Shown one piece after another: positions 1,335 through 18,019 of a DNA stretch of 64,000 nt (position 1 is the stretch's first letter; each line of letters opens with the position of its first letter). This DNA is from a virus: positions 1 through 64,000 of the IMG/VR virus record IMGVR_UViG_3300046321_000098; one strand, written 5' to 3'. The position numbers and the translations under genes were made by a program. The notes under the pieces are model-generated. The model saw only the letters and a list, made by a program, of their open reading frames with translations. It was not told the origin of the DNA and ran no database searches.

Positions 1335-2795
1335 ATGACAAGAAAACAAATAAAAAAAGCTCAATCATCATTAGATAAACCTGAACCGTTTCAACTAGGT
1401 GAGATGGGAATATCTGGTGCTCCAATCTTTGCAGGCATTCCAGCCAACGAGATTAAGCGAGAGCTGAATTTTCCTACTAACTTGACAACGTTTAAAAAGA
1501 TGATGTTGCATCCAGCAGTGAATGCAAGTATGTCATTGCATAAATCAATGTTAAGCAAGGCAACCTTCCGTGTCTTACCTTGCAAGAATCCTACAGCAAA
1601 AGAGAAGTTCCAAGCTAAGAAGATTGAAGAAATGCTTACTGACATGGATACACCTTTGGAGGATGTTGTTTCCTCCAGCTTGTCAGCATTGGAATATGGT
1701 TTCGCCCCACTTGAAAAAGTGTTTCGCTTACGGGAAAAAGCCTTTGGGTCTAAATACAGTGATGGATTGATTGGTGTCAAAAAGTTAGCCTTACGACACC
1801 AAGAGTCAATTGACACCTTCATCTTCGATGATGAAGGTAACGAAGTCCTCGGTTTGAAACAAAGCTTGACGAATGTAAATGACCCAATGGGGCGTTACAC
1901 TAAATGTGCCAAGGGTGACATTGTGTTACCCCGTGAGAAGTTCATGCTTTTTACCGTAGGTAACGACAAGAGTAATCCTTATGGAACTAGCCCTTTGAGG
2001 AATGTTTTTTTACCGTGGAAGTATTTGCAAGCGATTGAGGAACTTGAGGCAAGTGGCATTGCCAAGGATCTAGCTGGACTACCTTTTATTCGCATCCCTG
2101 CTCAAATGATGTCAGCCGATGCAAGTACAGAGCAGAAGCTTGCTTTTGAGCAATTCAAAGCAATCGGACGTAATCTACAAAACAACGCACAAGCTTGTGT
2201 AATCTTACCAAGTGATTGTGACCCTGATACACGTCAACCTTTGTTCAGTTTAGAGTTACTGGAAAACGTATCAAAGAAGAGTTTCAACACTACCGATGTG
2301 AAGTCCTACTACCGTGAGATGATTTTCATTGGGTTGAGTGCTGATTTGTTGCTGATGGGAAACACAACCACAGGTTCATTTGCATTGGGTGCAATTAAGC
2401 AATCCTTGACAGGTGCAACCGTCGAAGGCTACCTCAAAAACATTGTTCAAACATTCAACCTTGATTTGATTAAACACTTGTACGAGTTGAACAGCTGGGA
2501 TGTCAGCCGCATGTGCGAACTGGATTTTGAGGGGTTCGAAGATGTGGATTTAGACTCCTTTAGTAAGTCAATCCAACGAATTGGGTCTGTAGGTTATCTC
2601 CCACGTACACTAGATGTCGTCAACGACATTCTAAGAAAGCACGGATTAGACGCACTGCCAGAAGGTACTGAACTGGATGATATTTTACCAGAGAAAACAT
2701 CGAAAGCCTCAGAAGGCATGAAAACTGCTGCTGACGGTACAGCCAATGAAGTTACTGGTAAAGACTCTGCTAGTTTGAATACCGAGAATAGTTGA
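1335..2795 (+). CDS. Portal protein
   Basis: 486 aa directly after terL; YGFAPLEKVF and NPYGTSPLR motifs typical of DUF935/Mu gp29-like portals. Confidence 0.9.
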   Translation: MTRKQIKKAQSSLDKPEPFQLGEMGISGAPIFAGIPANEIKRELNFPTNLTTFKKMMLHPAVNASMSLHKSMLSKATFRVLPCKNPTAKEKFQAKKIEEMLTDMDTPLEDVVSSSLSALEYGFAPLEKVFRLREKAFGSKYSDGLIGVKKLALRHQESIDTFIFDDEGNEVLGLKQSLTNVNDPMGRYTKCAKGDIVLPREKFMLFTVGNDKSNPYGTSPLRNVFLPWKYLQAIEELEASGIAKDLAGLPFIRIPAQMMSADASTEQKLAFEQFKAIGRNLQNNAQACVILPSDCDPDTRQPLFSLELLENVSKKSFNTTDVKSYYREMIFIGLSADLLLMGNTTTGSFALGAIKQSLTGATVEGYLKNIVQTFNLDLIKHLYELNSWDVSRMCELDFEGFEDVDLDSFSKSIQRIGSVGYLPRTLDVVNDILRKHGLDALPEGTELDDILPEKTSKASEGMKTAADGTANEVTGKDSASLNTENS

Positions 2796-2820
2796 TATTT
2801 GTAACATTTCGTGTTACAAT
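2792..2820 (+). promoter_or_regulatory. Sigma70-like promoter with embedded TGTAAC..GTTACA palindrome
   Basis: TTGATA-17nt-TACAAT; TGTAACA-N5-TGTTACA overlaps spacer and -10. Confidence 0.65.
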
Positions 2821-2828
2821 TGTAGATT

Positions 2829-2916
2829 GACAACGGCTAGGGTCATTCCCGAAAAGAAGATTAGTTACCTTCCTGCCTGTTGTTTTATTAGTAACTTCCA
2901 TTAACTAAGGAATACA
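2829..2916 (+). ncRNA. Structured RNA leader (three-way junction, anti-RBS loop), copy 1
   Basis: P1 2829-2837/2875-2884, GGG-TCATT-CCC, GAAG-loop-CTTC; similar to 14288-14376. Confidence 0.7.
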
Positions 2917-3510
2917 ATGACAAAGATACTTAAGAAATATGAGTTAAATAGGGAGTATGTAGTTCAGATATTAGAGTATGAACCACAAACTGGTGAATTT
3001 TTCTGGCTAGTACCCAAGGCAATGAGAGTTAACATTGGAGACTTAGCGGGTAACTATCGTAAGCAAAGTGGATATGTAACAATTAGTATTGATAATGTAG
3101 ACTACAAAGCGCATCACTTAGTCTGGTTGTACCATTATGGAGTTTTCCCTGTACTAGAGATTGACCACATAGACGGTAATCGAGCGAATAATAGGGTGGA
3201 TAATCTAAGAGAGGTCACATCCTCTACCAACGCAATGAATCGTAAAATGAGGGAAGATTGTTCATCAGGGGTCACTGGGGTAAGCCTGAGAAGAGGAAAA
3301 GGGAGAAACGGGAATCCATATCACGCATGGGTGGCGTTCTGGTGTGATTCAGACGGTAAACAGCGGTTTAAGAATTTTGCTGTAATCAAATACGGGTTTG
3401 ATACCGCCAAGCAAATGGCAATATCCTACAGAGAAGCACGTATACGTGAACTAAACACAGCAGGCGCTGATTACACAGAAAGACATGGAAAGCAATGTTC
3501 ACAGCATTAA
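2917..3510 (+). CDS. HNH homing endonuclease with AP2-like C-terminal domain
   Basis: YKAHHLVW...IDHIDGNRANNRVDNLR; SSGVTGVS. Confidence 0.92.
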   Translation: MTKILKKYELNREYVVQILEYEPQTGEFFWLVPKAMRVNIGDLAGNYRKQSGYVTISIDNVDYKAHHLVWLYHYGVFPVLEIDHIDGNRANNRVDNLREVTSSTNAMNRKMREDCSSGVTGVSLRRGKGRNGNPYHAWVAFWCDSDGKQRFKNFAVIKYGFDTAKQMAISYREARIRELNTAGADYTERHGKQCSQH

Positions 3511-4148
3511 ACACTCTCCCCTCATTAGAGGGGAAACCTAGAGACATTCGTGTACTCTTTGCAGACACAGCTAATACAGCCTTAAATTCAGGACGCTCGG
3601 AAGATGAAGCAATTTTTAAGGGTTTAGCTGTCGTAAAGCAAGCAGAGCAGTTCAGTATTAAAAAATACACCAGACCTGTTATCCCTTTGCACTTACAAGC
3701 AATACTAGACCTCAAGAATGCTCCTAAACCCTCTAAAGAAGAGCTACAAGAGCTTGAAAAAGCAAATGAACCTGTAAGTAGCTTACAAGCTGGAAAAGAG
3801 ATTGTTAGTGCTGAATTTGACTATCAAGGACGTTTAACATTAAAGTTCAAGGATGGTAAGAAAATCATCAGCAATGTTGCCCCTGTTACAGCGGTGCAGA
3901 ACACAGTTGTTGTTACAGCCTCAGGTGGCACGGGAACAATCAGTACTGAAACAGAGGGACTTGATGAGCTTACCTACAGCGGAGAGGATTTACAAAGAGT
4001 GGACTACGCAGATGGTACATATAAGCTCTTGTATTGGACGAATGGCGTCTTGGAGTATGTAGACCACTTCCAAACAGACCAAACAGTTCGTAAGACTCTT
4101 AACTACACACTTGGGGTATTGACCTCGGTTTTAACAGAAATATTATAA
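3495..4148 (+). CDS. Probable head-associated protein, ChaB-like N-terminus plus beta-rich C-terminal extension
   Basis: LPSL...LFADTANTAL...EDEAIFKGLAVVK resembles the ChaB helical motif; position after portal. Confidence 0.5.
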   Translation: MFTALNTLPSLEGKPRDIRVLFADTANTALNSGRSEDEAIFKGLAVVKQAEQFSIKKYTRPVIPLHLQAILDLKNAPKPSKEELQELEKANEPVSSLQAGKEIVSAEFDYQGRLTLKFKDGKKIISNVAPVTAVQNTVVVTASGGTGTISTETEGLDELTYSGEDLQRVDYADGTYKLLYWTNGVLEYVDHFQTDQTVRKTLNYTLGVLTSVLTEIL

Positions 4149-4149
4149 A

Positions 4150-6744
4150 ATGACAGCATATACTCTAGCAGCTAACGCAAATTTGAGACAGGTGGGTACT
4201 GCAGGTGTATGGGGTGTGGTAACTGCGAGAACTGGCGGTGATACAGTAGATAGTAATGGATTCAATTTAACAATAGACCAAGACACAAGGTACGGTTTTA
4301 GTGGTACAACTTCTACAAGTTTTGGCTCTATAACCATTAACGCAAACAAAGGTGGTCAATTAAATATTGATGCTAGGTTTGTTCGTATGATACCGTTTAC
4401 AGGTGGCTCTGGGACAATTACTGCAGGTACGACAATTACTTGCGGCTCAGGTACTGGGGCAGTCATTGGGTTATATTCCTCATTAACAACTGCTCCAGTG
4501 TTAACAGGAGTGGCATCAGGTTGGATTAAAGTAACCGCTTGGAACGGTATATCTTTTCCTACCAGTGGTACATTTACTCAGGCAGGTTATACATTCACAA
4601 TCTCAGGTGCAAGCATTGTAGGGTTTATTGAGGTGGTGGGAGATGAAGCTGGGACGATTGTAGCAAATCGATTAGGTTCAGTGAACATCACAGGGGAGTG
4701 GTTTGAGGTTGGCACAACATCAGGCTCCTCTGCTACGACTTACCAGCTTCCCACCAATGGTGCTATTCAATACTACCCATCATTATGGGTGGAGACAGGT
4801 GTAGGTACAGGTGTATATGAATCTTATCCGAACTCTGGCTCTTTGGTTGCAGCAAGTTCTACACCAACAGACGCAGTACGTGGTAAGTTCTGCTGGACAA
4901 CTACAGCAGGGGTGCTACGATTCGGCTCAGACGGAACAAACACTGTAGGTTATCTCCCACCAGCAGGGTTAAAAATCCGCTTACCAAATATCCTTTTAAA
5001 CAATTGCACCACGGCAGCAAGGACTGCAAATGTCTTACCAAACGCTACCTTAGCAACAAGGTACGATTTTACCTGTACTGGCGGTGGCGTTGTAAACATC
5101 AACAAAGCTAACTGTAACTGGTATCCAAGTTTTAACCAAGCATTTTCTGTAAATCTTAGCTACACAGGCATCGCAGAGCAACTACTTGTTTCTGAGATTG
5201 CTCAACCTTGCATTTGGGATAATGTTGCTGTGGGACAATCCGCAGCACAGGCTCAAATTGCTTTATCCATGTCCTTGTGCTTTGCAGGTGGAACAATTAG
5301 TAATTGTAATTTTACTCGTGCAACTCAGGCTACAGCTCTGGCTGTACGGACACTTACAGATATTTCAGATTTTGTGTTCACTGGGAATCGTTGGAGGTCT
5401 AGGGTTCTTCGTGCTGCTGCGAATACAATGATGGCAACTGATACTAGGGTTGCAGATTGTACGTTCACAAATGAAGTGACTATGGGGCAGATTAACCTTG
5501 TGACCTGTACTAATGTAACGTACACAAACCGCGTTTACTATGACCAACTTATAGCAACTACAGCAACCAATCCTTTAAGTGCTTGGGCTTTGTCTTCAAA
5601 CTGCGTAAATATTAAATTAGATGGTTTAACTTTTGGAGGGTTGACAAATGCTCACCCTTACACAGCTATCCTAAGTATTGCTGCTGCAGGGTGTACAGGT
5701 ATTAAATTAAGAAACATCGGCACAAGCCTTGTGCCGTTGAGTCTAGGTTCTGCAAATGCAACAGGTTTGATATACACCCTTGCCGCTGGTGCTGCTGCCT
5801 CTGATGTTAAAGTACAAAGGGTTTACTGCTCGAACACTAGAATAGGTGTTATGACAGGAGACAACTCCAGTACACGAGTGGTGGAAGAGAGTGTTTTTGG
5901 GGACTATGCTAATGCAGCTGTTGTTGCCGCTGTTTTAAACTACACTAGAAAAGGTAGAGGCGGTACGATAGCTGTTACAGCACAAACTGCTATTTACGGT
6001 ACACATTGGTACGACTGCTACACAAGCACAACAGCAGGACGTATTGGTTTAATGATGAATGAGGCAACATCATTAACCTCGTCTCAGATTACTTTGACAA
6101 ACGGTGCAGCGTTTACTTCAACAGGTGGTTTGTACATGCCAACAATAGGTATGACAGCCCTCTTTGAGATACCTTATTACCTAATTGGTCATACTGGGTT
6201 TCAGAACTCACCTGCTATTATGGCAGGGGGTACATCTACTAACTACACGTATGGTTTTCAGATAGATAAGAATGACGGTGCTGGTTGGAGTACATTAACT
6301 TCTGGTTCTACGACTACAACTCTTGCAACTGCTTTAAATGCTTTAACAGGTATTAATGCATTACTGGGGTTTAAGCTGAGAATCAAGATTACAACTACAG
6401 TTGCAAACACTACAGCTATAACCTCATTCTATTTACTCACCAGCTCAACTACAACAACTCAGGGTTATCAGTATCCATTAGAGACTAATACTTTCACCTT
6501 GACTGGGTTAGTATCAGGGTCAGATATTGTGATAAAGACAAGTGATACAAACACAGCATTGGTTAACGTAGACCAGAACCTGACAGACTCTTACGGCTAT
6601 GTTTATACTTTCACTCCGAGTACTTATGTGGATATAAAAGTGATAAAAGCTGGTTATATCCCTTATCAAGTCTATGACTACCTTCTCAGTAGTGCCGATG
6701 CTTCACTACCTATCGCTCAAGTTATAGACAGGAATTATGTATGA
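4150..6744 (+). CDS. Large Thr/Gly-rich beta-helix-like probable virion protein
   Basis: 864 aa, T/G/S/A-rich, central repeats like GTISNCNF/DCTFTN/TNVTYTN, ends DRNYV. Confidence 0.6.
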   Translation: MTAYTLAANANLRQVGTAGVWGVVTARTGGDTVDSNGFNLTIDQDTRYGFSGTTSTSFGSITINANKGGQLNIDARFVRMIPFTGGSGTITAGTTITCGSGTGAVIGLYSSLTTAPVLTGVASGWIKVTAWNGISFPTSGTFTQAGYTFTISGASIVGFIEVVGDEAGTIVANRLGSVNITGEWFEVGTTSGSSATTYQLPTNGAIQYYPSLWVETGVGTGVYESYPNSGSLVAASSTPTDAVRGKFCWTTTAGVLRFGSDGTNTVGYLPPAGLKIRLPNILLNNCTTAARTANVLPNATLATRYDFTCTGGGVVNINKANCNWYPSFNQAFSVNLSYTGIAEQLLVSEIAQPCIWDNVAVGQSAAQAQIALSMSLCFAGGTISNCNFTRATQATALAVRTLTDISDFVFTGNRWRSRVLRAAANTMMATDTRVADCTFTNEVTMGQINLVTCTNVTYTNRVYYDQLIATTATNPLSAWALSSNCVNIKLDGLTFGGLTNAHPYTAILSIAAAGCTGIKLRNIGTSLVPLSLGSANATGLIYTLAAGAAASDVKVQRVYCSNTRIGVMTGDNSSTRVVEESVFGDYANAAVVAAVLNYTRKGRGGTIAVTAQTAIYGTHWYDCYTSTTAGRIGLMMNEATSLTSSQITLTNGAAFTSTGGLYMPTIGMTALFEIPYYLIGHTGFQNSPAIMAGGTSTNYTYGFQIDKNDGAGWSTLTSGSTTTTLATALNALTGINALLGFKLRIKITTTVANTTAITSFYLLTSSTTTTQGYQYPLETNTFTLTGLVSGSDIVIKTSDTNTALVNVDQNLTDSYGYVYTFTPSTYVDIKVIKAGYIPYQVYDYLLSSADASLPIAQVIDRNYV

Positions 6745-6941
6745 AATCACCTCCTAAAATTACACTCCGTATAACGGACTCTACTGATGGTAAAAATATC
6801 GGATATGAGTTTGTTTTCTTAACAAATCAGATTGTCTTTGGAGATGGTGTAACCATTGACTTTGATAAAACAATTCCCTTGACGGACGGTATCCGTTTTG
6901 CATCTAGTTCTTATATCATCGACACTATACAGGTAAAATAA
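6741..6941 (+). CDS. Hypothetical protein
   Basis: ATGA overlap with upstream gene, fills operon gap. Confidence 0.6.
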   Translation: MKSPPKITLRITDSTDGKNIGYEFVFLTNQIVFGDGVTIDFDKTIPLTDGIRFASSSYIIDTIQVK

Positions 6942-6942
6942 A

Positions 6943-8619
6943 ATGGCAAAAATCACAAACCGCGCTCAACTAAATATAGGTACAGAGCTAACAGTAGATG
7001 TAGGTACTAGGACTATTACATTAAATGTTGCAGGTAACCTTGTAGCAAAAGATGGTGTATCTTGGCAAGCACTTTATTCTAAGTTAATTCAACTTTGGGA
7101 ATCCTCTGCATATAATGAACACCCTTTTCCGTTCTATACAATTGACGCTCTGTCAGGTCAGTTTAATATAGGTTTTGATGGTACTAGATACAACAACTGG
7201 GTATTTGGTGGAACTTTGGCTACAGGTACACGTCTGTATCTGCGTGATGGTGGTTGGAATGAGTACACCCCCACAGGTGCAGGTGCTGACGGTACGGCGG
7301 CAGCGGGATCGATTTCAAGCACCTTTGCAGGTGTAGTGTCCCTAGGTTCTGTTTCAACCGCTGCACAACTTTATTATCAAAAAGTAGCGGCAGGTGCTGC
7401 GATTGACTTTACTTACACAGATGCTGCTAACTTAGGTGTGCAAGTTTATGGTGACGCTGCAAACGGTAACTTCACTAATAACACTTACATGAAGGGTTAT
7501 TGCCGTATTTACGCTAAGAAGTACACTGACTCTGTTTTAGCGGATACAGGTAAGACAGGTACTGGTGCATATCTTGTTAATTTGTTGCTATCTAACTCTG
7601 ACGACTTAGACATTGTTAACACCGATACGGACGTTATTACAACACCTATTACACCCTATAATAAGATGCGTATCAACTATTTCTCTGGTGCTTTCCAGAA
7701 GGACGTTGACCTTGTGGGTACGCCTCGTAGTTTTGGTATTGTCGTGGATGTAGGCACTCACTCAGGTATTGATGGTTCTGGCACTTCTGGTGCACCTGTA
7801 TTTACTTCCACAGTAGGAGGTATCACAGGTGCAAATTTCACAGGTGGTACACTACGCATTCACACCGGCGCTGCGAAAGGTCTGTATACGATTAGTGGTT
7901 CTCCTACAAGTACAGTGGTAACTTTAACAACTAACTTATTAGGTGCTGCCTCTGGAGCAAGTTTTACGCTTTCACCTGCTACACCTGTTACAGCAACACT
8001 GAAGCAAGTTTACACATTCGTACAAGCCAAGTTACGTCAAGCTACTACAATTAATAATGTCAACGGTGGTACTTCCGTAATCGGTAAAACAGCTTCGTTG
8101 CTGATGAACTGGACAGCTAAACTTGTTTGTGGATTTTATGCCCCAACAAACCCCGCTGGAGGTGGCACAGGTGTAATTGTTGAAGGTCTAGCAGATGCAG
8201 ATATTAATACAATTCAGTTCTTCGATAATTCCGCAGCTCAACGTGAGTACCCTTTTGCTTCTGCAGGTACACTAGATTTCTCTGCTAATTTAGTAGGTGG
8301 CTGGTACGTATTGTATTATTCCGATTTATCTTCTACGAACGACTGGGGTACTACCAACGCTGTTATTGTTAAAAACAAAGCAGGAGTAGATATTGCGGGG
8401 ACAGTTGGTGCAGCGTCTATACCTTTCAATTATGACTACACCAATGACACAGCAGGTGGATTACGCACAGGAAGTACAGACACTGCTGTTACCCTAGTAG
8501 CAGGTAAGTCTGGTTCTGCTAAACCTGTTGTTGTGGCAACATCTCCTAGTGGTGGTTTAACTGCCTCAAAAGGAATTAAAATTGCAGCAGTTGCCGAAAC
8601 TGACCGAGCCTACGCATAA
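6943..8619 (+). CDS. Thr/Gly-rich probable virion protein
   Basis: 558 aa beta-rich; N-terminus resembles 8632-9114; ends DRAYA. Confidence 0.6.
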   Translation: MAKITNRAQLNIGTELTVDVGTRTITLNVAGNLVAKDGVSWQALYSKLIQLWESSAYNEHPFPFYTIDALSGQFNIGFDGTRYNNWVFGGTLATGTRLYLRDGGWNEYTPTGAGADGTAAAGSISSTFAGVVSLGSVSTAAQLYYQKVAAGAAIDFTYTDAANLGVQVYGDAANGNFTNNTYMKGYCRIYAKKYTDSVLADTGKTGTGAYLVNLLLSNSDDLDIVNTDTDVITTPITPYNKMRINYFSGAFQKDVDLVGTPRSFGIVVDVGTHSGIDGSGTSGAPVFTSTVGGITGANFTGGTLRIHTGAAKGLYTISGSPTSTVVTLTTNLLGAASGASFTLSPATPVTATLKQVYTFVQAKLRQATTINNVNGGTSVIGKTASLLMNWTAKLVCGFYAPTNPAGGGTGVIVEGLADADINTIQFFDNSAAQREYPFASAGTLDFSANLVGGWYVLYYSDLSSTNDWGTTNAVIVKNKAGVDIAGTVGAASIPFNYDYTNDTAGGLRTGSTDTAVTLVAGKSGSAKPVVVATSPSGGLTASKGIKIAAVAETDRAYA

Positions 8620-8631
8620 TGGAGTAAATTA

Positions 8632-9114
8632 ATGGCATTAACAATCGACCCTGCTACAAAAAGATTTGTACTGGATAGCAACAATGTCACAGTTCAAAGC
8701 ATATACTCAGCTTGGGTTGATTGGCTAGCTGTCGGGGACAATAGTAAATATTTACCTGCTTTTTCTACTGTAGGTGGTGACACTTTAGGAGGGGGGTTGT
8801 CAATACCTCCTTATTACTTTTTAATAAATGGCTGGCGTGTTCGCCCAATGGAAGCTAATCAGACACTGGTTCTTACGGGTAACCTGTTTGTGGATGGTGG
8901 TGGTGATCCCATTGTACCAACACTCGGTGTATTCAATGTTTTGGTGAAGTCCGTTGTTCCTGTCCAAGCTCAAGGTATCTCTACTGGTGGTGCAGCAGAC
9001 CCTGCAGTTGTAGCACAAGCAGTACGTGACGCTCTAGCTGTTGAACTAGCAAGAATAGATAAAAAGATTTCATCAAGAGCCACTGCTGCTGATATTGTGG
9101 CACTATCTAGGTAG
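8632..9114 (+). CDS. Probable virion protein, paralogous to N-terminus of 6943-8619
   Basis: GGAG RBS; shared (I/V)D..T.....V..Q.(I/L)YS...W pattern. Confidence 0.6.
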   Translation: MALTIDPATKRFVLDSNNVTVQSIYSAWVDWLAVGDNSKYLPAFSTVGGDTLGGGLSIPPYYFLINGWRVRPMEANQTLVLTGNLFVDGGGDPIVPTLGVFNVLVKSVVPVQAQGISTGGAADPAVVAQAVRDALAVELARIDKKISSRATAADIVALSR

Positions 9115-9191
9115 TAATTGAATATAAATATCTGATATAACATAAAATAGTGATAAAGTCCAGAATTATTTTAATAATACTTACTTTTCCC

Positions 9192-9220
9192 TTGATTTTT
9201 ATGTAACAATATGTTATAAT
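9192..9220 (+). promoter_or_regulatory. Sigma70-like promoter with TGTAAC box
   Basis: TTGATT-17nt-TATAAT with extended TG; TGTAAC-N5-GTTATA. Confidence 0.7.
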
Positions 9221-9242
9221 TGAATATAAGTACAGGAAAATA

Positions 9243-10028
9243 ATGAATAATAAATTTAAACCCACGGATGCTGTACTAGATAACATCCAAAGAGGTATTG
9301 CTCTTAGTAAGAAATATGAGCGAAACTCTTTTGCTGGTCAGCACCGCAAACAGCAAGTTGATATTACTAAGTCCTACTTAGTCAACGGCTTTGACATTAA
9401 AGCTGTGAGTAATATCTATCACACACTGTCTAAATTAGAGAAATCAATTAAACCTGATACTCGTTTGTGGGATGGTGGTTGTACTGATGACGTGATTAAA
9501 TATTATGCTCATGGTGGTAAGGCGGGACTTGCTTGGTCAAGGTTAGTCTTAAAAGAACAAGGAATGCTTGACTCTTATAAAAGAGATGTTACTACGGCTG
9601 AAACAGAAGAAACTGAAAACGACTCTATTGGAAGCATCGGAGTTCTGAAGTCAGTCGATGAGATGCAACGGATGGCAACCTTTGTTGTACTGGAGCCTCA
9701 AGATGATTCAGGCATGACGAGTGACTTGCATGGAGATTACTATGACGCACAGACTGTAGAAAAAGCTTGTAGGAGTTTTAATAACCAGTGCAAAAAAGCT
9801 AATCTTTTTCATGCTGTTGAAACCACAGCATTCACCTTCGTAGAGTCATATATAACACCTGCTGACATGATTATCAATGAAACTTTCATTAAGAAAGGAA
9901 CGTGGTTAGCAACAATCCAAGTAAGTGAAGAACCTGAGTACGAATTTATCTGGCAAGGTATCCTTTCTGGCGAGTTCAATGGGTTATCTATTCAAGCTAT
10001 GGGGACAGTAGAACAACTCACAGATTAA
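9243..10028 (+). CDS. Prohead protease, XkdF-like
   Basis: VLEP...DLHGD...NLFH...VESYI...KGTW...FNGLSI motifs; precedes scaffold and capsid. Confidence 0.85.
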   Translation: MNNKFKPTDAVLDNIQRGIALSKKYERNSFAGQHRKQQVDITKSYLVNGFDIKAVSNIYHTLSKLEKSIKPDTRLWDGGCTDDVIKYYAHGGKAGLAWSRLVLKEQGMLDSYKRDVTTAETEETENDSIGSIGVLKSVDEMQRMATFVVLEPQDDSGMTSDLHGDYYDAQTVEKACRSFNNQCKKANLFHAVETTAFTFVESYITPADMIINETFIKKGTWLATIQVSEEPEYEFIWQGILSGEFNGLSIQAMGTVEQLTD

Positions 10029-10035
10029 GGAACAC

Positions 10036-11058
10036 ATGACAAAAATTAAAGCAACAAAAAAACTTACTGATATTGACTTCAGCGGCAAGAATGCTGCTGT
10101 AGCACTTGTCGGAAAAGCAAACGGTGGAGCAGCCAACGGTTTCACTTCATTATTAGTCAAGTCGGCTAAATATACTGATGAGCATGTTGAGAAGGCTGCA
10201 AAGATACGTATCACTATGAGTATCGAGGACTTCTTGGTCAAGTTTTATGGGCTGTGGCACGACGAAGCTGAGGTACTAGCCAGAGCACTTGGGTTTGATA
10301 CCAAGTCTGACGAGGAAATTCCAGACACTTACGAAGACTACATTGCCTCGCAAGTAGCAGCAATTGAGGTCTTAAAGGGTTTAGAACAATCTGAGGATGT
10401 TAATAAGTCCCTATCAGAACTTGAACCCGACGATTACTTAGCACTTTTGAAGTCACAAGAACTCTTGGAAAAGGCGTTCAAGAAGATTGACAAAGGTGCA
10501 ACAAATTCTAAGCCAACTGTTAAGACGGTTAGCAGCGAAGAAGGCACTTCTATTGCCGTGGCATCTGCCAAAGAAGTAGAAAAAGCAAAAGCTGAAGACG
10601 TGTCTTCTAGCGAAACAAAACCAACGGAGAAATCTAAGATGACAGTTAAAACAGTCGAACAAGAAGTGATTGTGGAAATGGTCGAGAAGTCCCAATTTGA
10701 GAGCATTGAAAAAGCGCTCAAAGAACAGGCTGTAGCTCTTGAAAAAGCCCTCGAAACAGTAAAACAATTTGAAAAAGAAAAAGCCGAAGCAGTCCAGAAG
10801 TCCCGCAAAGATTTGTTGACAGCAACAGTAAAGGATGCAGACAAGGTGGAGGCTTTGTTTAAAGGCTTTGCAAATGTTGAGTCTCAGGAGATTTTTGAAA
10901 GTGCCATTAAAGCCCTAGAAGGCATGATGACAGCACAAACAAATTCAGACTTGTTCAAAGAATTAGGTGCTAGCACTCAAGCTCTAAAACAAGATGAAGA
11001 TACACCCTTGATGAAAGCAGCTAAGGCTGCCGCCGCACAAGCCAAGTCTACAAAATAA
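10036..11058 (+). CDS. Capsid scaffolding protein
   Basis: Charged helical 340 aa between protease and capsid genes. Confidence 0.7.
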   Translation: MTKIKATKKLTDIDFSGKNAAVALVGKANGGAANGFTSLLVKSAKYTDEHVEKAAKIRITMSIEDFLVKFYGLWHDEAEVLARALGFDTKSDEEIPDTYEDYIASQVAAIEVLKGLEQSEDVNKSLSELEPDDYLALLKSQELLEKAFKKIDKGATNSKPTVKTVSSEEGTSIAVASAKEVEKAKAEDVSSSETKPTEKSKMTVKTVEQEVIVEMVEKSQFESIEKALKEQAVALEKALETVKQFEKEKAEAVQKSRKDLLTATVKDADKVEALFKGFANVESQEIFESAIKALEGMMTAQTNSDLFKELGASTQALKQDEDTPLMKAAKAAAAQAKSTK

Positions 11059-11078
11059 TTTAATTAAGGAATAACAAG

Positions 11079-11474
11079 ATGTCTGTAATCGCAACTTCGA
11101 CGCATACAAAGTCAAATGTGCTCAAAAAAGAAATTTGGGCGGGTGAGGGTTTCGCTGAAACTGTTATCGTAATCAATGATACCGCTGGTACTCTCTTGGT
11201 AGGTACAGTTCTCGGTAAAGTAACTGCCACTGGTAAGTACAAACGTGCAGTTCAAACAGCAGTAGACGGTTCAGCAGTAGCTGCAGCTATCGTGATGAAT
11301 GAACAAACAATTCTCGGCGCTACGGATACTAAAGCTGTTGCCCTGACTCGGGGCTTCGCTAAAGTCTCTAAAGCAGGTCTAGTTCTGGATGCAACTTATG
11401 ACTTGCAAGCAGAAAAAGATGTTATCTATGCGTCTCTTGAAGCCCTAGGTATTCAAGTTTTGGACACTATCTAA
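11079..11474 (+). CDS. Head decoration protein (lambda gpD-like)
   Basis: GTVLGKVTATGKY...DGS.VA.AI motif, immediately before MCP. Confidence 0.85.
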   Translation: MSVIATSTHTKSNVLKKEIWAGEGFAETVIVINDTAGTLLVGTVLGKVTATGKYKRAVQTAVDGSAVAAAIVMNEQTILGATDTKAVALTRGFAKVSKAGLVLDATYDLQAEKDVIYASLEALGIQVLDTI

Positions 11475-11495
11475 TAATTAAGGAAAATATATAAC

Positions 11496-12518
11496 ATGAC
11501 AACCCGCAGCTTTACAAATAGCTTTGAAGTAGTTGATAGCACTCGTGAACTTAACACCTTGCCTCAGACATGGACACTCTTAAGTGATTCTGGTTTGTTC
11601 AAGGATGAGTTCTTGTCGCAAAACGTAGTCACCTTCCAAGAAACCAAAGGTTCTATTGCAATAGTTAAAGACCAAATCCGTGGTTCAAAACCACAGACTA
11701 CCTCCAACGATTTGCGTAAGATTCACTCTTACTCTTTGACTCACCACCCTCTGACGGATGCCTTGTACCCTGACGATATTGCTGGTAAGTCAGCTTATGA
11801 TGATTTGAACTCCGCTGACACTGAAGCAAAAGCTTTGTTGCGTAAAATGCAAAAGATTCAAAAGTCGTTCGATGTGACTAAAGAGATTGCACGTTTCCAG
11901 ACTATTACAACTGGTGCAGCTTGGGCACCGAATGGTACAGTAGTCGCTAACTACTACACGGACTTTGGTTTCACTCGTAATGAGGTTGACTATGTGTTTG
12001 GTACATCCACGACAGACATTGCAGCTAAGTGCGAAGCAATCATCCGTGGCTTCCAAGATTCAGCGACAGACGGTGTAATTATCAATTCTGTTACTGCATA
12101 TTGCAGCCCTGTGTTCTTTGCTAAACTGATTAACCACGCCCGTGTTCAGACAGCTTACACTTACTTCACATCTACAACTGGTCAAAATGTGTTGCGTGAA
12201 CGTGCTGGTGGTATGGGTCTGTATCGTCGCTTCACTTATGCCAATATCAACTTCGTTGAAGTGCCGACAGTCTTGGCAGGTCAGGCGCTTATTCCAAGTG
12301 GTGATGCGTATTTTATAGCTGAGTCAGATGATGACTCATTCGTTACAGTGTATGGCCCTGCAAACCGTTTCGGCTTGGTTAACACTATTGCAATGCCTCA
12401 GTATTTGTGGCAATTCCGTGACCCTCGTGGCACAGAAATCACGCTTGAAGCTGAGTGCAATATGCTCTCCCTGTTGAAGCGTCCTAACTTTGTTGCTCGT
12501 GGCTTTAGCTCCACTTAA
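11496..12518 (+). CDS. Major capsid protein (lambda gpE-like)
   Basis: 340 aa; YYTDFG, CSPVFFAKLINH, YGPAN motifs; followed by terminator. Confidence 0.92.
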   Translation: MTTRSFTNSFEVVDSTRELNTLPQTWTLLSDSGLFKDEFLSQNVVTFQETKGSIAIVKDQIRGSKPQTTSNDLRKIHSYSLTHHPLTDALYPDDIAGKSAYDDLNSADTEAKALLRKMQKIQKSFDVTKEIARFQTITTGAAWAPNGTVVANYYTDFGFTRNEVDYVFGTSTTDIAAKCEAIIRGFQDSATDGVIINSVTAYCSPVFFAKLINHARVQTAYTYFTSTTGQNVLRERAGGMGLYRRFTYANINFVEVPTVLAGQALIPSGDAYFIAESDDDSFVTVYGPANRFGLVNTIAMPQYLWQFRDPRGTEITLEAECNMLSLLKRPNFVARGFSST

Positions 12519-12535
12519 TACAGAGTAATAAGATT

Positions 12536-12559
12536 GCCCTCTTTATTGAGGGCTTTCTT
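12536..12559 (+). terminator. Intrinsic terminator
   Basis: GCCCTC-loop-GAGGGC followed by T-rich tract. Confidence 0.7.
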
Positions 12560-12620
12560 CTAAGGCTACCTTTGTTGTTGGTTTTAGAAGAGATACAAAC
12601 AAAAAGAAAAGAGAAACACC

Positions 12621-13037
12621 GTGGCTTTAAACCTTATTCAGCAAGTACGTCTTTTGACACAAGACAACGCCGTGGGCTTTTACTTTGTGACAGATGAAGA
12701 AATTCAGTTCTTCCTAGACCGCAATAATCAAAACGTAAACAAGACAGCGTTAGAAGTAGCTAAAGTTATTCTGTTGCAACTGAGCATGTGGAGTGCTAAT
12801 GAAACTGTAGACATCTTCTCCGTAACAGGTGGAAGTAAATCAGCAGAACAGTACCGACTCTCCTTGCAAATGTTTCTACGCTCTCCTGAACTCAATCCAG
12901 TATTTGCAAATGTAAATGCTTATGCAGGTGGGATTAGTCTAATTGATATGCAAGCTAATGTAGATAACTCAGATAACAACTACATTTGCACTCCTAACAG
13001 TTCAACTGCACAGACTGTACAAAACTTTGGAGTCTAG
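12621..13037 (+). CDS. Head-tail adaptor
   Basis: VRLLTQD...TDEEIQFFL motif; position after MCP. Confidence 0.75.
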   Translation: MALNLIQQVRLLTQDNAVGFYFVTDEEIQFFLDRNNQNVNKTALEVAKVILLQLSMWSANETVDIFSVTGGSKSAEQYRLSLQMFLRSPELNPVFANVNAYAGGISLIDMQANVDNSDNNYICTPNSSTAQTVQNFGV

Positions 13038-13039
13038 TA

Positions 13040-13399
13040 ATGGCTAACAGATTTCTACTAGCAAGCATTGACGCTGTGAAACGCAATGGACTATCTTGCA
13101 ACTACATAAAAGTTCAAACTGGTGTTTACAATGTCGAGACTGGATCGGTTACTAATACTGAGACGACTTATCCTGTAGTGATGTATAAAAAACACATTAA
13201 GACAAGTCAGTACAATTACCCAAACTTAATAGGTAAAGATGTTGGTGTATTTTACTTAGCTAACTATCAATTAACTTTTACACCTTCTGTTAAAGATAAA
13301 ATTTTCTACGATAACCAGACTTATATTGTAGAGTCCTTCGAGAACTGTGTAGCTCACTCACAGACCGTCCTATTCAAAATTCTAGCTGTGAGGACTTAG
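13040..13399 (+). CDS. Head closure / head-tail joining protein
   Basis: GVYNVETG motif; size and position. Confidence 0.7.
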   Translation: MANRFLLASIDAVKRNGLSCNYIKVQTGVYNVETGSVTNTETTYPVVMYKKHIKTSQYNYPNLIGKDVGVFYLANYQLTFTPSVKDKIFYDNQTYIVESFENCVAHSQTVLFKILAVRT

Positions 13400-13400
13400 T

Positions 13401-13862
13401 GTGATTACCGCTGATGAGAGTGAATGCAGTAAATCCCTGCAGGAGTACAGAATTGAAGTAGAACGTAAACTCAAAGCGATGGTTTCAGGGTTTGCAAGAG
13501 AGATAGCTGAGACAGCTTCCTCAAAGACTACTATTGGCGATGAAACTAAGCTCTATGACTTATACGCCGCGCGTGAACTAGCCAGAGGTATCGACGCAAA
13601 AGCAGGCTTCCACAAAGGAGCTTGGGTATACACCGAAGGTGGTCTAACCTTTGACCCTAAAATTTACTCCACAGGTATGATGGCAAACGAAGTTGAATAC
13701 CAAGCCCAAGCTAACTACAAGATTGGTGATAGCTTTTCAATCGGTGCAGAAGGTACAGCTTATGAGATGCTTCAAGAGCGTGATGATATTGAAGGTGAAA
13801 CCCTTTCAGCCATTCAGACCGCCCACAAAGTGGATTTGAAGCGTTTTTACGATGAAGGATAA
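13401..13862 (+). CDS. Neck / tail completion protein (HK97 gp10-like)
   Basis: Position; G.HKGAW motif. Confidence 0.6.
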   Translation: MITADESECSKSLQEYRIEVERKLKAMVSGFAREIAETASSKTTIGDETKLYDLYAARELARGIDAKAGFHKGAWVYTEGGLTFDPKIYSTGMMANEVEYQAQANYKIGDSFSIGAEGTAYEMLQERDDIEGETLSAIQTAHKVDLKRFYDEG

Positions 13863-13864
13863 CT

Positions 13865-14281
13865 ATGCCTATATTGGCAACAAAAAGAGCGTTAGAACGC
13901 CGTTTAACAGCTTTAACCCCCACTGTACCGACAGCCTTTGAGGGTGTGAGTTTTGAGCCACCTACAACTCTATATCAGCGATGTCAGTTTCGTATTGATT
14001 CACCAGAGGACACAACATTAAGTGCAGGTACTGGCATTGGATATTACAGAGAACGGATTCAATTTCAAGTCTTTGTAATTGCAGAACCAAACCAAGGTAC
14101 AGCCGCAGCACTTACCCGTGCCGAACTGATTAGAAATCTCTTTAAAAAAGGTACAACCCTTTTAGAAGGTAGTTACAGAATATATGTTCTAACTACACCA
14201 AAGGTGGGGTCTACAGCACAGATTGGTACGAGGTCTATTGTGCCTGTGATGGTTGATGTGATTACAGAAGTCTATTCGTAG
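13865..14281 (+). CDS. Tail terminator protein
   Basis: TAFEGVSFEPP...FQVFV...GT motif; precedes tail tube. Confidence 0.7.
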   Translation: MPILATKRALERRLTALTPTVPTAFEGVSFEPPTTLYQRCQFRIDSPEDTTLSAGTGIGYYRERIQFQVFVIAEPNQGTAAALTRAELIRNLFKKGTTLLEGSYRIYVLTTPKVGSTAQIGTRSIVPVMVDVITEVYS

Positions 14282-14287
14282 GTTTAT

Positions 14288-14376
14288 AAACAGGCTAGGG
14301 GTTGCTCCCGAAACAGAAGAGTCATTACCTTCTCTTGCCTTGTTTTCTTTTTAGTAATGTTCTTTAATGGAGAAGT
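14288..14376 (+). ncRNA. Structured RNA leader (three-way junction, anti-RBS loop), copy 2
   Basis: GGCTAGGG..CCCGAAA.AGAAGA..TTACCTTC..TGCCT core shared with 2829-2916. Confidence 0.7.
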
Positions 14377-15147
14377 ATGCTTTTATTAACAAAAGACAAA
14401 TTGAACCAAATACTTAAGCAAAATCGTGGAAAATCTTACACTTATGGGCTGTGTCGTGGTTCAGGGGATTTATTCTATGTGGGTGTAGGGATACGCCAAA
14501 GAGTTCTTAATCATACCTATGAACATGAACTAAATCGTGGTGGGAATAAGCATAAAATAAGTATTATTAAAAGAAAATAAAACATACTTTAGACTGTTAT
14601 TTTTTAATTCTCTTTTAATAAGGATAGAGCAGTTTGTCTTGAGGTGGAAAAAGATTTAATAAGAAAGTTTGGACGTTCAGATATCCAAACAGGCTCACTG
14701 ACAAACTTGACAAATGGCGGTGAAATTGGCGCAAACGGTGTGGTTGTTTCTGCTGAAACTAGATTAAAACTCTCCGAAAAAGTACAGGAAAGAGTTGAAG
14801 TAATAAGAGAACAACAACGCGAACGCTGGAAAATTTTAACAGAGGATGAGAAACTGCAACGCATCCTTAACATGACGCGCGGCAGTGGTACTCCTGAGCA
14901 TCTTGCTAAGTTATCAAAGGCACAACTGAAAAAGTGGAGTAATCCAGAGTACAAAAAACGTCTCTCGAAGATACAAGTAACAGCCCAAGGTGCTCTTGCA
15001 GAAGACCATAGAAGAAGAACAACAGCTTACTGGGCAAACCCAGAAAACAAAGAAAAACGATTAGAACAGAATAGGTTACGAAGGGCTGCAAAGTTAAGTA
15101 ACCCTGTCTTGAGTCCGATAGAAGAACGGGTTGCTGTACCCACTTAA
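14377..15147 (+). pseudogene. GIY-YIG-like homing endonuclease, interrupted
   Basis: YTYGL...FYVGVG..R...H and E..LI...GR.D...G.LTNLTNGGE are in the same frame but separated by three in-frame stops at 14578-14607. Confidence 0.75.
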
Positions 15148-15197
15148 AAACAGGACATTTTGCAAAATGTATTTTATAAGTAAACAAGGAATCAATA

Positions 15198-16409
15198 ATG
15201 CCATCAATTTCACGTGGAACGGCGAAAGTAATCGCCTACAAAAAAGAAACAACATTCGGTGTCTTAGCAGGCGCTGCCTCTGGTAAACAACTTCGCCGTG
15301 TTACAGGTAATTTCAATTTAAGCAAAGAAACTTACGAGTCAAACGAAATTCGCTCAGACCGCCAATTAGCGGATTATCGTCACGGTGTTCGTAGTACAGA
15401 GGGTTCATTGAACGGTGAACTGTCGCCTAATTCTTACTCTGATTTTATCCAAGCAATTCTTGCTAGGGACTTTACAACTGGAGCTATCGCTACAGGCTTG
15501 ACAGTAACTATTGCAGCTTCTGGTTTGTTGTGGACAGTCACTCGTACTGCAGGCTCATGGTTGACAGATGGTATGACTGTTGGTAAAGTTATTGCTCTTA
15601 CAGGTGGGACACTAAACGTACTGACTACAGGTAAGAATTTATTGATTGTAGCTACGACAGCTCTGGTATTAACTGTCAAGGTTCTTAACAACACAGCCCT
15701 CTTTACAGATACAGCGGTAGCATCTGTTACCGCAACAGTGCGAGGTAAAGACACTTTTGTTCCTGCTACTGGACATACCGACCAATCTTTCACCGTAGAA
15801 GAGTGGTACTCCGATATTGCTCAGTCAGAGGTGCATACAGGTTTAAAAGTAGGCTCAATGAACACGCAGCTACCTGCCACTGGTTTAGCCACTGTGGACT
15901 TCTCTTTCCAAGGGAAGGACTTGACACAGACAGGTACTGCTCAGTATTTCACTACTCCTACAGCACAAGGTACAAATGGTATTTTTGCTGCAGTACAAGG
16001 TGCAGTCATTGTAAATGGACAACCTGTGGCACTGATTACTTCAGCGGATTTCTCAATCGAACGTGCTCTGGAAAATGCTGTTGCGGTGGGTTCAAACTCA
16101 GTTGCAGATATTTTCACAGGACGTATTAAGGCAATGGGTAACCTCAGTGTTTACTTCCAAGACGCTGTGTTCCGTGACTACTTTAAAGATGAGACTGTTG
16201 TTTCTTTAGTTTTTGCAATGACCACATCTGATGCAGCAAATGCGGATTTTGTAAGTTATGTTTTACCTAAAGTAAAACTTGGGTCATTCACCAAAGATGA
16301 CCAAGAGCTAGGTTTAGTCGCCAGTACTTCGTTCCAAGCGTTACTTAATGACATTTCAACAGGTGGTCTACCCTTGACCACTGTTGCAGTACAAGACAGT
16401 ACACTGTAA
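15198..16409 (+). CDS. Tail tube (major tail) protein
   Basis: 403 aa; SNEIRSDRQ..D.RHG motif; no sheath gene; followed by terminator. Confidence 0.88.
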   Translation: MPSISRGTAKVIAYKKETTFGVLAGAASGKQLRRVTGNFNLSKETYESNEIRSDRQLADYRHGVRSTEGSLNGELSPNSYSDFIQAILARDFTTGAIATGLTVTIAASGLLWTVTRTAGSWLTDGMTVGKVIALTGGTLNVLTTGKNLLIVATTALVLTVKVLNNTALFTDTAVASVTATVRGKDTFVPATGHTDQSFTVEEWYSDIAQSEVHTGLKVGSMNTQLPATGLATVDFSFQGKDLTQTGTAQYFTTPTAQGTNGIFAAVQGAVIVNGQPVALITSADFSIERALENAVAVGSNSVADIFTGRIKAMGNLSVYFQDAVFRDYFKDETVVSLVFAMTTSDAANADFVSYVLPKVKLGSFTKDDQELGLVASTSFQALLNDISTGGLPLTTVAVQDSTL

Positions 16410-17414: not shown

Positions 17415-17503
17415 AACAGCGTCAGTCGTAGGCATACGCGCAAGTGAAGTTCTGCTCCAACAGAGACTCATCTGATGTTTGTTTTAAAATGTTTTGGAGG
17501 ACA
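17415..17503 (+). ncRNA. Structured RNA leader with anti-SD loop, different sequence family
   Basis: P1 17415-17425/17472-17483, CGTA-GGCA-TACG, loop CTCCAA complementary to TTGGAG at 17494-17499. Confidence 0.6.
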
Positions 17504-18019
17504 ATGGTGGAAATTAATAAGAACAAAGCACTTTCACAAGACGAGTGGAAAGCATTGGTAGACTACAACCCAGACACAGGTGTCTTTGTTTGGAAAGTTA
17601 ATCGTTATCGCACACAAGCTGGTGACATTGCAGGTTACCGTAAACCTAACGGGTATATCTCTATTCGTACAAACAAGAAGCATCATCCATGTCACCGAAT
17701 AGCTTGGATAATTACGTATGGTGTTGATACTGATGGGTTCATAGACCACATTAACGGTGACAAAAGTGACAACAGAATTGTAAATTTACGTGTAGCTAAT
17801 AAGTCCGCGAATGGGTTTAATACTACAAAACGTGCTAACAATACATCAGGTTACAAAGGTGTCACTTGGCACAAACAAATTGGTAAGTGGGCAGCTCGTG
17901 CAAAAGTAAACTATGAGTGTTATCACTTAGGGTTATTTGATGACGTACTAGAAGCTGCTAAAGCATACGACGATTTTGCGAAAGCAAACCACGGCGAATT
18001 TTACAAAGATAATCTATAA
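17504..18019 (+). CDS. HNH-AP2 homing endonuclease
   Basis: HRIAW...IDHINGDKSDNRIVNLR; NTSGYKGV...HLGLF; start reassigned to ATG after GGAGG. Confidence 0.92.
   Translation: MVEINKNKALSQDEWKALVDYNPDTGVFVWKVNRYRTQAGDIAGYRKPNGYISIRTNKKHHPCHRIAWIITYGVDTDGFIDHINGDKSDNRIVNLRVANKSANGFNTTKRANNTSGYKGVTWHKQIGKWAARAKVNYECYHLGLFDDVLEAAKAYDDFAKANHGEFYKDNL

Follow-up and report, generated by a model that had tools for sequence, protein, structure and literature searches.

The CI RNA of P4 is processed out of its own leader transcript, with which it pairs at two positions (PMC4825925). The c4 RNA of P1 and P7 pairs around a ribosome-binding site, blocks translation and sets heteroimmunity (PMC12197685). 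T4-type homing endonuclease genes are kept low by RNA structures that sequester the ribosome-binding site (PMC2988022). Here we analyse a leader RNA with features in common with these systems, in a 64,000-nucleotide (nt) stretch of a phage genome of 82,011 bp (IMG/VR virus record IMGVR_UViG_3300046321_000098, positions 1–64,000; this whole stretch is hereafter denoted the window). Positions 14288–14376 form an untranslated leader, which we consider, on balance, to be that of a mobile homing-endonuclease cassette that a freshwater (lake) phage carries between its genes for the tail terminator and the tail tube. The leader (copy 2) has a counterpart elsewhere in the window (copy 1), and both resemble int-alpA, an RNA family catalogued in Rfam (RF02996).

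Copy 2 folds as a three-way junction (feature coordinates are collected in Table 1). The closing stem, P1, is formed by AAACAGGC (14288–14295) paired with GCC(U)UGUUU (14337–14345), with one U bulged. Hairpin 1 (14298–14309) pairs GGG (14298–14300) with CCC (14307–14309) and is followed by a GAAACA junction segment (14310–14315); hairpin 2 (14316–14332) pairs GAAG (14316–14319) with CTTC (14329–14332) and carries a 9-nt variable loop, the 'code'. Two downstream sites complement this loop: T1, which lies beyond a U-rich spacer, and T2, which overlaps the Shine-Dalgarno sequence in front of the start codon (ATG, 14377). In copy 1 the loop is ATTAGTTAC (2860–2868), with T1 GTAACT, T2 TAACTAA and the ATG at 2917; the gene behind it (2917–3510) encodes an HNH_3+AP2 protein (Pfam). 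The loops of the two copies differ at 3 positions, and minimum free energy (MFE) folds of both give the junction with the same three stems.

An earlier note on this DNA proposed a second leader copy on the same scaffold at 14288–14379, with both targets beginning 11 nt apart in either copy. The proposal is borne out by the sequence, the MFE fold and a covariance model of our own (R1), built from 19 relatives with copy 1 in the seed and copy 2 left out. R1 matches copy 2 with 30.5 bits (E 5e-7) and copy 1, a seed member, with 66.5 bits; across the whole 82,011-bp genome these are the only two matches. The 11-nt spacing is likewise present in both copies (T1/T2 offsets 18/29 and 20/31), with a register of 10 nt between the shared cores. 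For the core pattern GGCTAGGG-N3-8-CCCGAAA-N1-3-GAAG the window gives two matches, and 0/100 dinucleotide shuffles give any. A third leader has been suggested at 17415–17506, before the gene 17444–18019; R1 gives no match there at E up to 1. By eye, this segment has one loop (CTCCAA) facing TTGGAG at the ribosome-binding site, and a first site is not evident.

The pairing of the loop with its two targets was examined in an alignment of seven leaders, of which two are the window copies and the other five belong to related phages. Both the loop:T1 and the loop:T2 helix are paired in 7/7 leaders, and 3/6 pairs per helix have changed on both sides. The covariation score of the alignment was reached by 0/500 shuffles, and sliding the partner by 1–3 columns reduced pairing to 6–70%. 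The leader of one related phage (L124) illustrates the pattern, with the loop CATCAC in place of the CATTAC of copy 2 and with both targets changed to match (GTGATG at T1, TGATGG at T2). Since the loop changes in step with T1 and T2, every leader lineage carries a code of its own.

The same arrangement was sought in a wider sample from IMG/VR, in which the exact core GGCTAGGG-N3-8-CCCGAAA is present in at least 120 contigs; the sample taken from these contigs required the exact core, and it is incomplete and biased towards close relatives. The 122 matches comprised 120 loci plus the two window copies, L121, a duplicate of copy 1, being left out. After removal of 7 with less than 120 nt downstream, 13 without hairpin 2 by our rule, 5 without the closing GCC and 5 duplicates, 92 non-redundant loci remained, with 70 distinct loops among them. 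At 58/92 loci the 70 nt downstream contain a pair of separate exact complements, each 5 nt or longer, to the locus's own loop, compared with 3.3% of 7,892 cross-locus pairings in which a loop was set against another locus's downstream sequence. The earlier note's claims that loop changes are compensated in both targets, and that covariation supports real pairing, thus hold in the close relatives and, statistically, in the wider family.

The geometry of the sites is also regular (counted on the 84 loci with the start of an open reading frame (ORF) within 70 nt). T1 starts 15–18 nt past hairpin 2 in 55/66 loci and forms the stronger duplex in 51/66, and in 77/82 loci the end of the start-proximal site is 0–12 nt ahead of the start codon (6–12 nt in 54). 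The reading we favour, with moderate confidence, is that the leader limits nuclease translation, its loop pairing with T2 at the ribosome-binding site and T1 competing, mainly in cis. The int-alpA-type junction would present the 9-nt loop of hairpin 2 to either of two downstream sites on the same transcript, one (T1) at a fixed distance after the junction and usually the stronger partner, the other (T2) overlapping the ribosome-binding site. As T2 lies on the ribosome-binding site, loop pairing there should hide it and block initiation, with T1 competing for the same loop; jointly, the two pairings would keep translation of the nuclease low. We infer that loop and sites do pair in vivo, that the effect on translation is a decrease and not an increase, and that control is exerted in cis. 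Action in cis is rated the likeliest mode because the leader sits on its own target, because the T1 distance is fixed, and because copy 2 lacks a dedicated promoter and starts 6 nt past the stop codon of the gene upstream.

The fixed T1 distance and the strength of T1 as a partner would also fit a structural or processing role, in which the junction and a loop:T1 pseudoknot stabilise or delimit the cassette transcript, or insulate the late operon, without lowering translation; T2 would then be a by-product, or pairing would open the ribosome-binding site. The position of the cassette inside an essential late operon and the reach of the Rfam int-alpA model into the T1 region (model positions 58–71) fit this proposal as well. 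It leaves unexplained both the second complement on the ribosome-binding site at 58/92 loci and the covariation of that complement with the loop, and it needs a local hairpin at the ribosome-binding site. Such a hairpin was rejected as a family feature, the paired fraction being 0.415 against 0.40 in controls with shuffled upstream sequence (Wilcoxon p 0.47, n = 66), and we regard the structural role as improbable. In the MFE folds of both window copies the pyrimidine stretch between T1 and T2 is paired with the ribosome-binding site.

Rfam places the leader on the margin of a catalogued family. In a local E-value scan int-alpA matches copy 2 with 28.5 bits (E 3e-4) and copy 1 with 26.8 bits (E 9e-4), and the cmscan alignments of both span the full length of the model (positions 1–71). 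The gathering cut-off is 35.8 bits, and a gathering-level Rfam scan of the window reports tRNA only and neither leader copy. Leaders at the orthologous site of related phages exceed the cut-off (L128, 45.2 bits; L138, 37.6 bits), as do 5 of 12 tested IMG/VR loci with the shared core. The conserved junction letters of int-alpA (CUAG, CGAAA(A)G, CUGCC) are present in both copies, reading GGCUAGGG...CCCGAAACAG...CUUGCC in copy 2 and GGCUAGGG...CCCGAAAAG...CCUGCC in copy 1. Because the match is full length, if below cut-off, and orthologues score above it, copy 2 is best placed, by sequence comparison, as a weak-scoring, sub-threshold member of the int-alpA lineage. The window copies share with int-alpA the three-stem junction, the junction letters and a U-rich tail, and differ from it in scoring below the cut-off. 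They also differ in setting: the family is named for an integrase/alpA context, whereas the window copies precede homing endonuclease genes in a structural operon. Copy 1 lies 3′ of a Mu-type portal gene, and neither copy is near integrase and alpA genes.

Rfam gives the type of int-alpA as 'Gene; sRNA'. The family presumably stems from the survey by Weinberg et al. 2017 (NAR 45:10811), in whose main text the motif is not named. Published mentions of 'int-alpA' amount to one table of Rfam matches and one use of the term as a gene order. In the literature on int-alpA, with the 2017 survey covered by its main text only, we found neither a test of function nor a report of two-site loop complementarity. 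The earlier note had presented the leader as a candidate for an undescribed system, a description that we have abandoned on two counts: the leader is a sub-threshold relative of RF02996, with two orthologues above the cut-off, and pairing of one loop with two sites, including the ribosome-binding site, was already known from c4 (P1/P7) and CI (P4). The earlier note had also named, as what would refute it, a catalogued Rfam family with this function already shown; the family is indeed catalogued, and no publication showing its function was found.

Neither copy matches the C4 model (RF01695) at E up to 10, and C4 membership was rejected accordingly; as a positive control, the P4 CI RNA scores 74.9 bits with the same model. 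The leader may therefore be said to work like the C4 family without being a member of it. It shares with the P4 CI RNA a topology of closing stem, small hairpin and hairpin with a large antisense loop, and in both the loop complements two stretches of its own transcript, of which one, in the window leader, is at the ribosome-binding site. In the C4 family loop and targets change jointly between relatives to give distinct specificities (PMC12197685, PMC4825925), and the joint change is common to the leader. The differences lie in the closing stem (17 bp in C4, 8 bp here), in the junction sequences, in the placement of the targets, which flank the RNA in P4 but are both downstream here, and in the genes addressed, which in the C4 family serve immunity and replication and here encode nucleases. 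The T4-type hairpins (I-TevI, I-TevII, I-TevIII, segB and Aeh1 mobE) are likewise leader RNA structures that occlude the ribosome-binding site and keep nuclease output low (PMC2988022). These hairpins are simple, local and relieved by late promoters inside the hairpin, whereas the window leader would connect the loop of a conserved three-way junction with two distant sites and belongs to a family shared by many phages and gene types.

The likeness to P4 raises the possibility that the leader acts in trans, as a code-specific antisense RNA in the manner of c4 and CI. A short RNA, released at the U-run or by processing, would accumulate, pair with T1 and T2 on transcripts of the same code from any genome in the cell and shut off the nuclease, so that different codes would separate the phage's two cassettes from each other and from those of co-infecting phages. 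We consider this, the main alternative, unlikely, on evidence that points both ways. The leader topology matches that of the CI RNA, which is itself cut from a leader transcript with which it pairs at two sites (PMC4825925); the 70 distinct loops in 92 loci and the 3 loop differences between the window copies fit a role for specificity, and Rfam types int-alpA as a small-RNA gene. Promoter-like sites at P1 are a further point in its favour. In copy 1, such a site (Table 1) would start a transcript at about the first base of P1, and by eye an extended −10 promoter-like sequence, TGGTATAAT, lies just upstream of the leader in L128 (1481–1525) and L138 (1586–1623), again with an RNA start at about P1. 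By contrast, a consensus scan finds no promoter-like site upstream of copy 2, which starts 6 nt past the upstream stop codon, and by eye neither copy 2 nor L125 has the extended −10 sequence.

Evidence on release of such an RNA is similarly divided. A U-rich tract follows P1 in both window copies, and across the family the spacer has a T content of 38% compared with 25% further downstream. T runs of at least 4 occur in only 18/66 spacers and the terminator scan calls none at either copy, so that an intrinsic terminator formed by P1 and the U-run was rejected for the family; it is a possibility for the two window copies only. At L027 (4565–4680) an int-alpA-type junction and T1 are followed directly, by eye, by a GC-rich hairpin and T-run without a ribosome-binding site; in this form the family may exist as a small RNA by itself, which would suit action in trans. 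The absence of a C4 match and the fixed position of T1, which points to an intramolecular pseudoknot, speak against it. The earlier note also suggested that cross-talk would be avoided through different loop codes, an idea that takes action in trans for granted and gains no support here.

A bolder version, which we hold to be slightly more doubtful still, is that the leader is a programmable address label, the released small RNA silencing in trans all nuclease cassettes of the same code in the cell. Were it true, the cassettes of co-infecting phages would tell kin from rivals by a 6–9-nt code, like c4/CI immunity; new nuclease genes would gain regulation by recombining behind an existing leader; and an uncharacterised Rfam family would turn out to be an orthogonal antisense system by which mobile elements of phages are widely controlled.

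Several observations weigh against the favoured reading of translational control mainly in cis. The MFE folds are no more stable than those of shuffled sequences (z −0.94 for copy 2, −1.27 for copy 1), and for this reason the case for the fold rests on conservation rather than energy. The loop duplexes of copy 2 are weak, at −5.2 kcal/mol for T1 (by RNAduplex) and −3.3 kcal/mol for T2. The two-site test fails at 34/92 loci, some of which are chance matches to the pattern and others have a short second site. Since T1 is the stronger partner and is transcribed first, the resting state in cis may have the loop on T1 and the ribosome-binding site open, making the default ON rather than OFF. The many distinct codes are easier to explain if specificity in trans matters, and, since the nuclease gene behind copy 2 is broken, selection on that leader may be relaxed already. 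Lastly, contigs of one metatranscriptome library cover 14284–14866; these are assembled contigs, parts that they leave uncovered carry no meaning, and they cannot show transcription, strand or ends or exclude DNA carry-over.

Comparison of related phages at the same genomic site supports the view that the leader is modular and exchanged among nuclease genes. A GIY-YIG type homologous to the window gene stands behind leaders L124 and L138, a GIY-YIG+NUMOD3 type behind L125, L128 and the variant leader of L181, and an HNH_3+AP2 type behind L127. Over the 90 nt before the ATG, L125, L127 and L128 are 88%, 81% and 81% identical to copy 2, whereas the first 150 nt of their reading frames are 51–52% identical to that of the window gene, the level of unrelated sequence. 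L124 and L138, which precede the homologous nuclease, have leaders only 63–65% identical to copy 2, with hairpin 1 flipped and another code. The relationships of the leaders do not follow those of the genes, and similarity breaks off at the start codon. The modular view follows from near-identical leaders preceding three unrelated nucleases at one site, and the earlier note's idea that the module moves between endonuclease families is upheld by it. On the reading that we favour, the leader would have been exchanged among nuclease genes as a ready-made expression control.

This exchange bears on a further alternative, in which a protein would bind the loop, T1 and T2 as repeats in the DNA, one of them inverted and two direct. 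A precedent exists in I-TevI, which represses itself via an operator resembling its homing site (PMC2988022). That the same leader and code precede three unrelated nucleases is difficult to reconcile with such a protein, as is the range of proteins behind the wider family. The first ORF after the motif, tallied for 88 of the 92 loci (4 had none by our rule), encodes DUF1376 in 16, HNH_3 in 6, DUF927 in 5 and HTH_36 in 4, and more rarely HNH (3), NUMOD4 (2) or HNH_5 (2). Moreover, in the seven-leader alignment the stems around the loop covary as RNA helices, and G-U pairs are tolerated, column pair 40/93 being U-G in 6/7 leaders. We judge the DNA-level explanation very improbable. The tally also identifies the leader as a general front end, for nucleases in many cases and for other proteins too.

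Judged by its relatives, the gene after copy 2 belongs, as the earlier note had it, to the GIY-YIG and not the HNH type; it is not intact. Three in-frame stops interrupt it (TAA 14578–14580, TAG 14590–14592 and TAA 14605–14607), the frame being open thereafter to 15147, and the remnants are a 67-residue N-terminal piece (14377–14580) and a 167-residue ORF (14644–15147), the latter recorded from 5 contigs. Read through, with X at the stops, the product matches phrog_314 'homing endonuclease' across the break (E 3e-9, residues 7–218). Five intact relatives of 244–264 residues (P0002–P0006) are 37–55% identical over 93–99% of the read-through, and one of these (P0004) carries the GIY-YIG domain PF01541. 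The L124 orthologue reaches PF01541 with E 0.006, below its cut-off, and Pfam finds in the window nuclease sequence itself only PF22945 (E 0.16). All three stops fall at columns where the five intact relatives have residues, and the present genome carries the gene as a pseudogene.

In a variant contig of RNA-library origin all three stops are substituted (14579 A>T; 14591 A>C with 14592 G>T; 14606 A>T). Its two insertions and two deletions, each of 1 nt, cancel out, and it leaves the loop, T1 and T2 unchanged. With all three stops replaced in this contig, intact nuclease alleles probably circulate. The stops lie within 30 nt in the segment 14575–14610, where the variant contig differs at about 15 positions and by the four 1-nt indels, and differs little in the flanks; this pattern is more like replacement or hypermutation of a short tract than like scattered decay.

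The boundaries of the cassette were examined at the terminator–tube junction of related phages. Of 60 related loci with the tube protein, plus one with the nuclease family, 59 including the window have both flanks. In 51/59 the junction is empty (gap 30–145 nt), and R1 finds no leader in any of these 51 short gaps; in the remaining 8/59 it is filled (gap 761–1104 nt), and in 6 of these 8 R1 places a leader directly after the terminator gene. The leader thus lies inside the cassette, with swapped reading frames behind it. In the window, the stop codon of the tail terminator gene ends 6 nt before P1 of copy 2. The filled L128 and the empty L129 have common flanks, and the promoter, leader and nuclease therefore lie inside the insert. 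Another filled junction, L181, has by eye a divergent three-armed leader with its own matching target pair, detected by neither R1 nor Rfam. At the same site L182 (1387–2495) holds an unrelated insert of ~1.1 kb without a leader, whose ORF starts like a signal peptide. The right edge of the cassette in the window is marked by a perfect palindrome, ACATTTTGCAAAATGT (15155–15170), which lies ~27 nt upstream of the tail tube start codon and may be a late regulatory site. It has near-identical counterparts at this position in the related loci inspected, filled and empty.

Table 1. Positions of the two leader copies, their elements and the neighbouring genes in the window.
Feature	Position	Strand	Basis
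Three-way-junction leader, copy 2	14288–14345	+	int-alpA match, R1 match, MFE fold
Variable loop of hairpin 2, copy 2 (9 nt, AGTCATTAC; 'code')	14320–14328	+	Read from the sequence; pairing in 7/7 leaders
U-rich spacer 3′ of P1, copy 2 (TCTTTTTA)	14346–14353	+	Read from the sequence
T1, copy 2 (GTAATG), first complement of the loop	14354–14359	+	Sequence; 20 nt past the 5-bp hairpin 2 as scripted
T2, copy 2 (TAATGG, 14365–14370), overlapping the Shine-Dalgarno GGAG (14369–14372)	14365–14372	+	Sequence
GIY-YIG-type homing endonuclease gene, broken	14377–15147	+	Translation, phrog_314, relatives
Leader, copy 1, with T1 (2891–2896) and T2 (2902–2908)	2829–2916	+	int-alpA 26.8 bits; R1 66.5 bits
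Promoter-like site TTGATA-17-TACAAT with upstream TG	2792–2820	+	10/12 positions match
Tail terminator gene, left flank	13865–14281	+	PF13554, E 1.3e-17
Tail tube gene, right flank	15198–16409	+	PF18906, E 5.8e-38

What is new here is the evidence for membership of the leader in homing-endonuclease cassettes and for its exchange among them; the control principle itself is not new. For int-alpA, a catalogued family, the analysis supplies a hypothesis that can be taken to the bench, namely that a single loop has two targets and that the ribosome-binding site lies at the second of them. It also shows the RNA to be part of mobile homing-endonuclease cassettes, in which it is kept while one nuclease gene gives way to another. 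Confirmation would extend control of the c4/CI type, so far a feature of immunity regions in a few temperate elements, to the selfish nucleases of many environmental phages, and the leaders would provide a small, naturally orthogonal set of translational control parts.

Among cultured phages, megablast gave no match for window positions 2000–16000, blastn (E up to 0.01) gave none for the copy 2 leader, and there was none for L008, a typical relative. Among the publications listed in a literature search on DUF1376 with antisense or small RNA and prophage, none contained DUF1376. One motif-carrying viral contig of the IMG/VR sample, L022, also contains three CRISPR-DR4 repeats (4245–4392), each scoring 42.1 bits.

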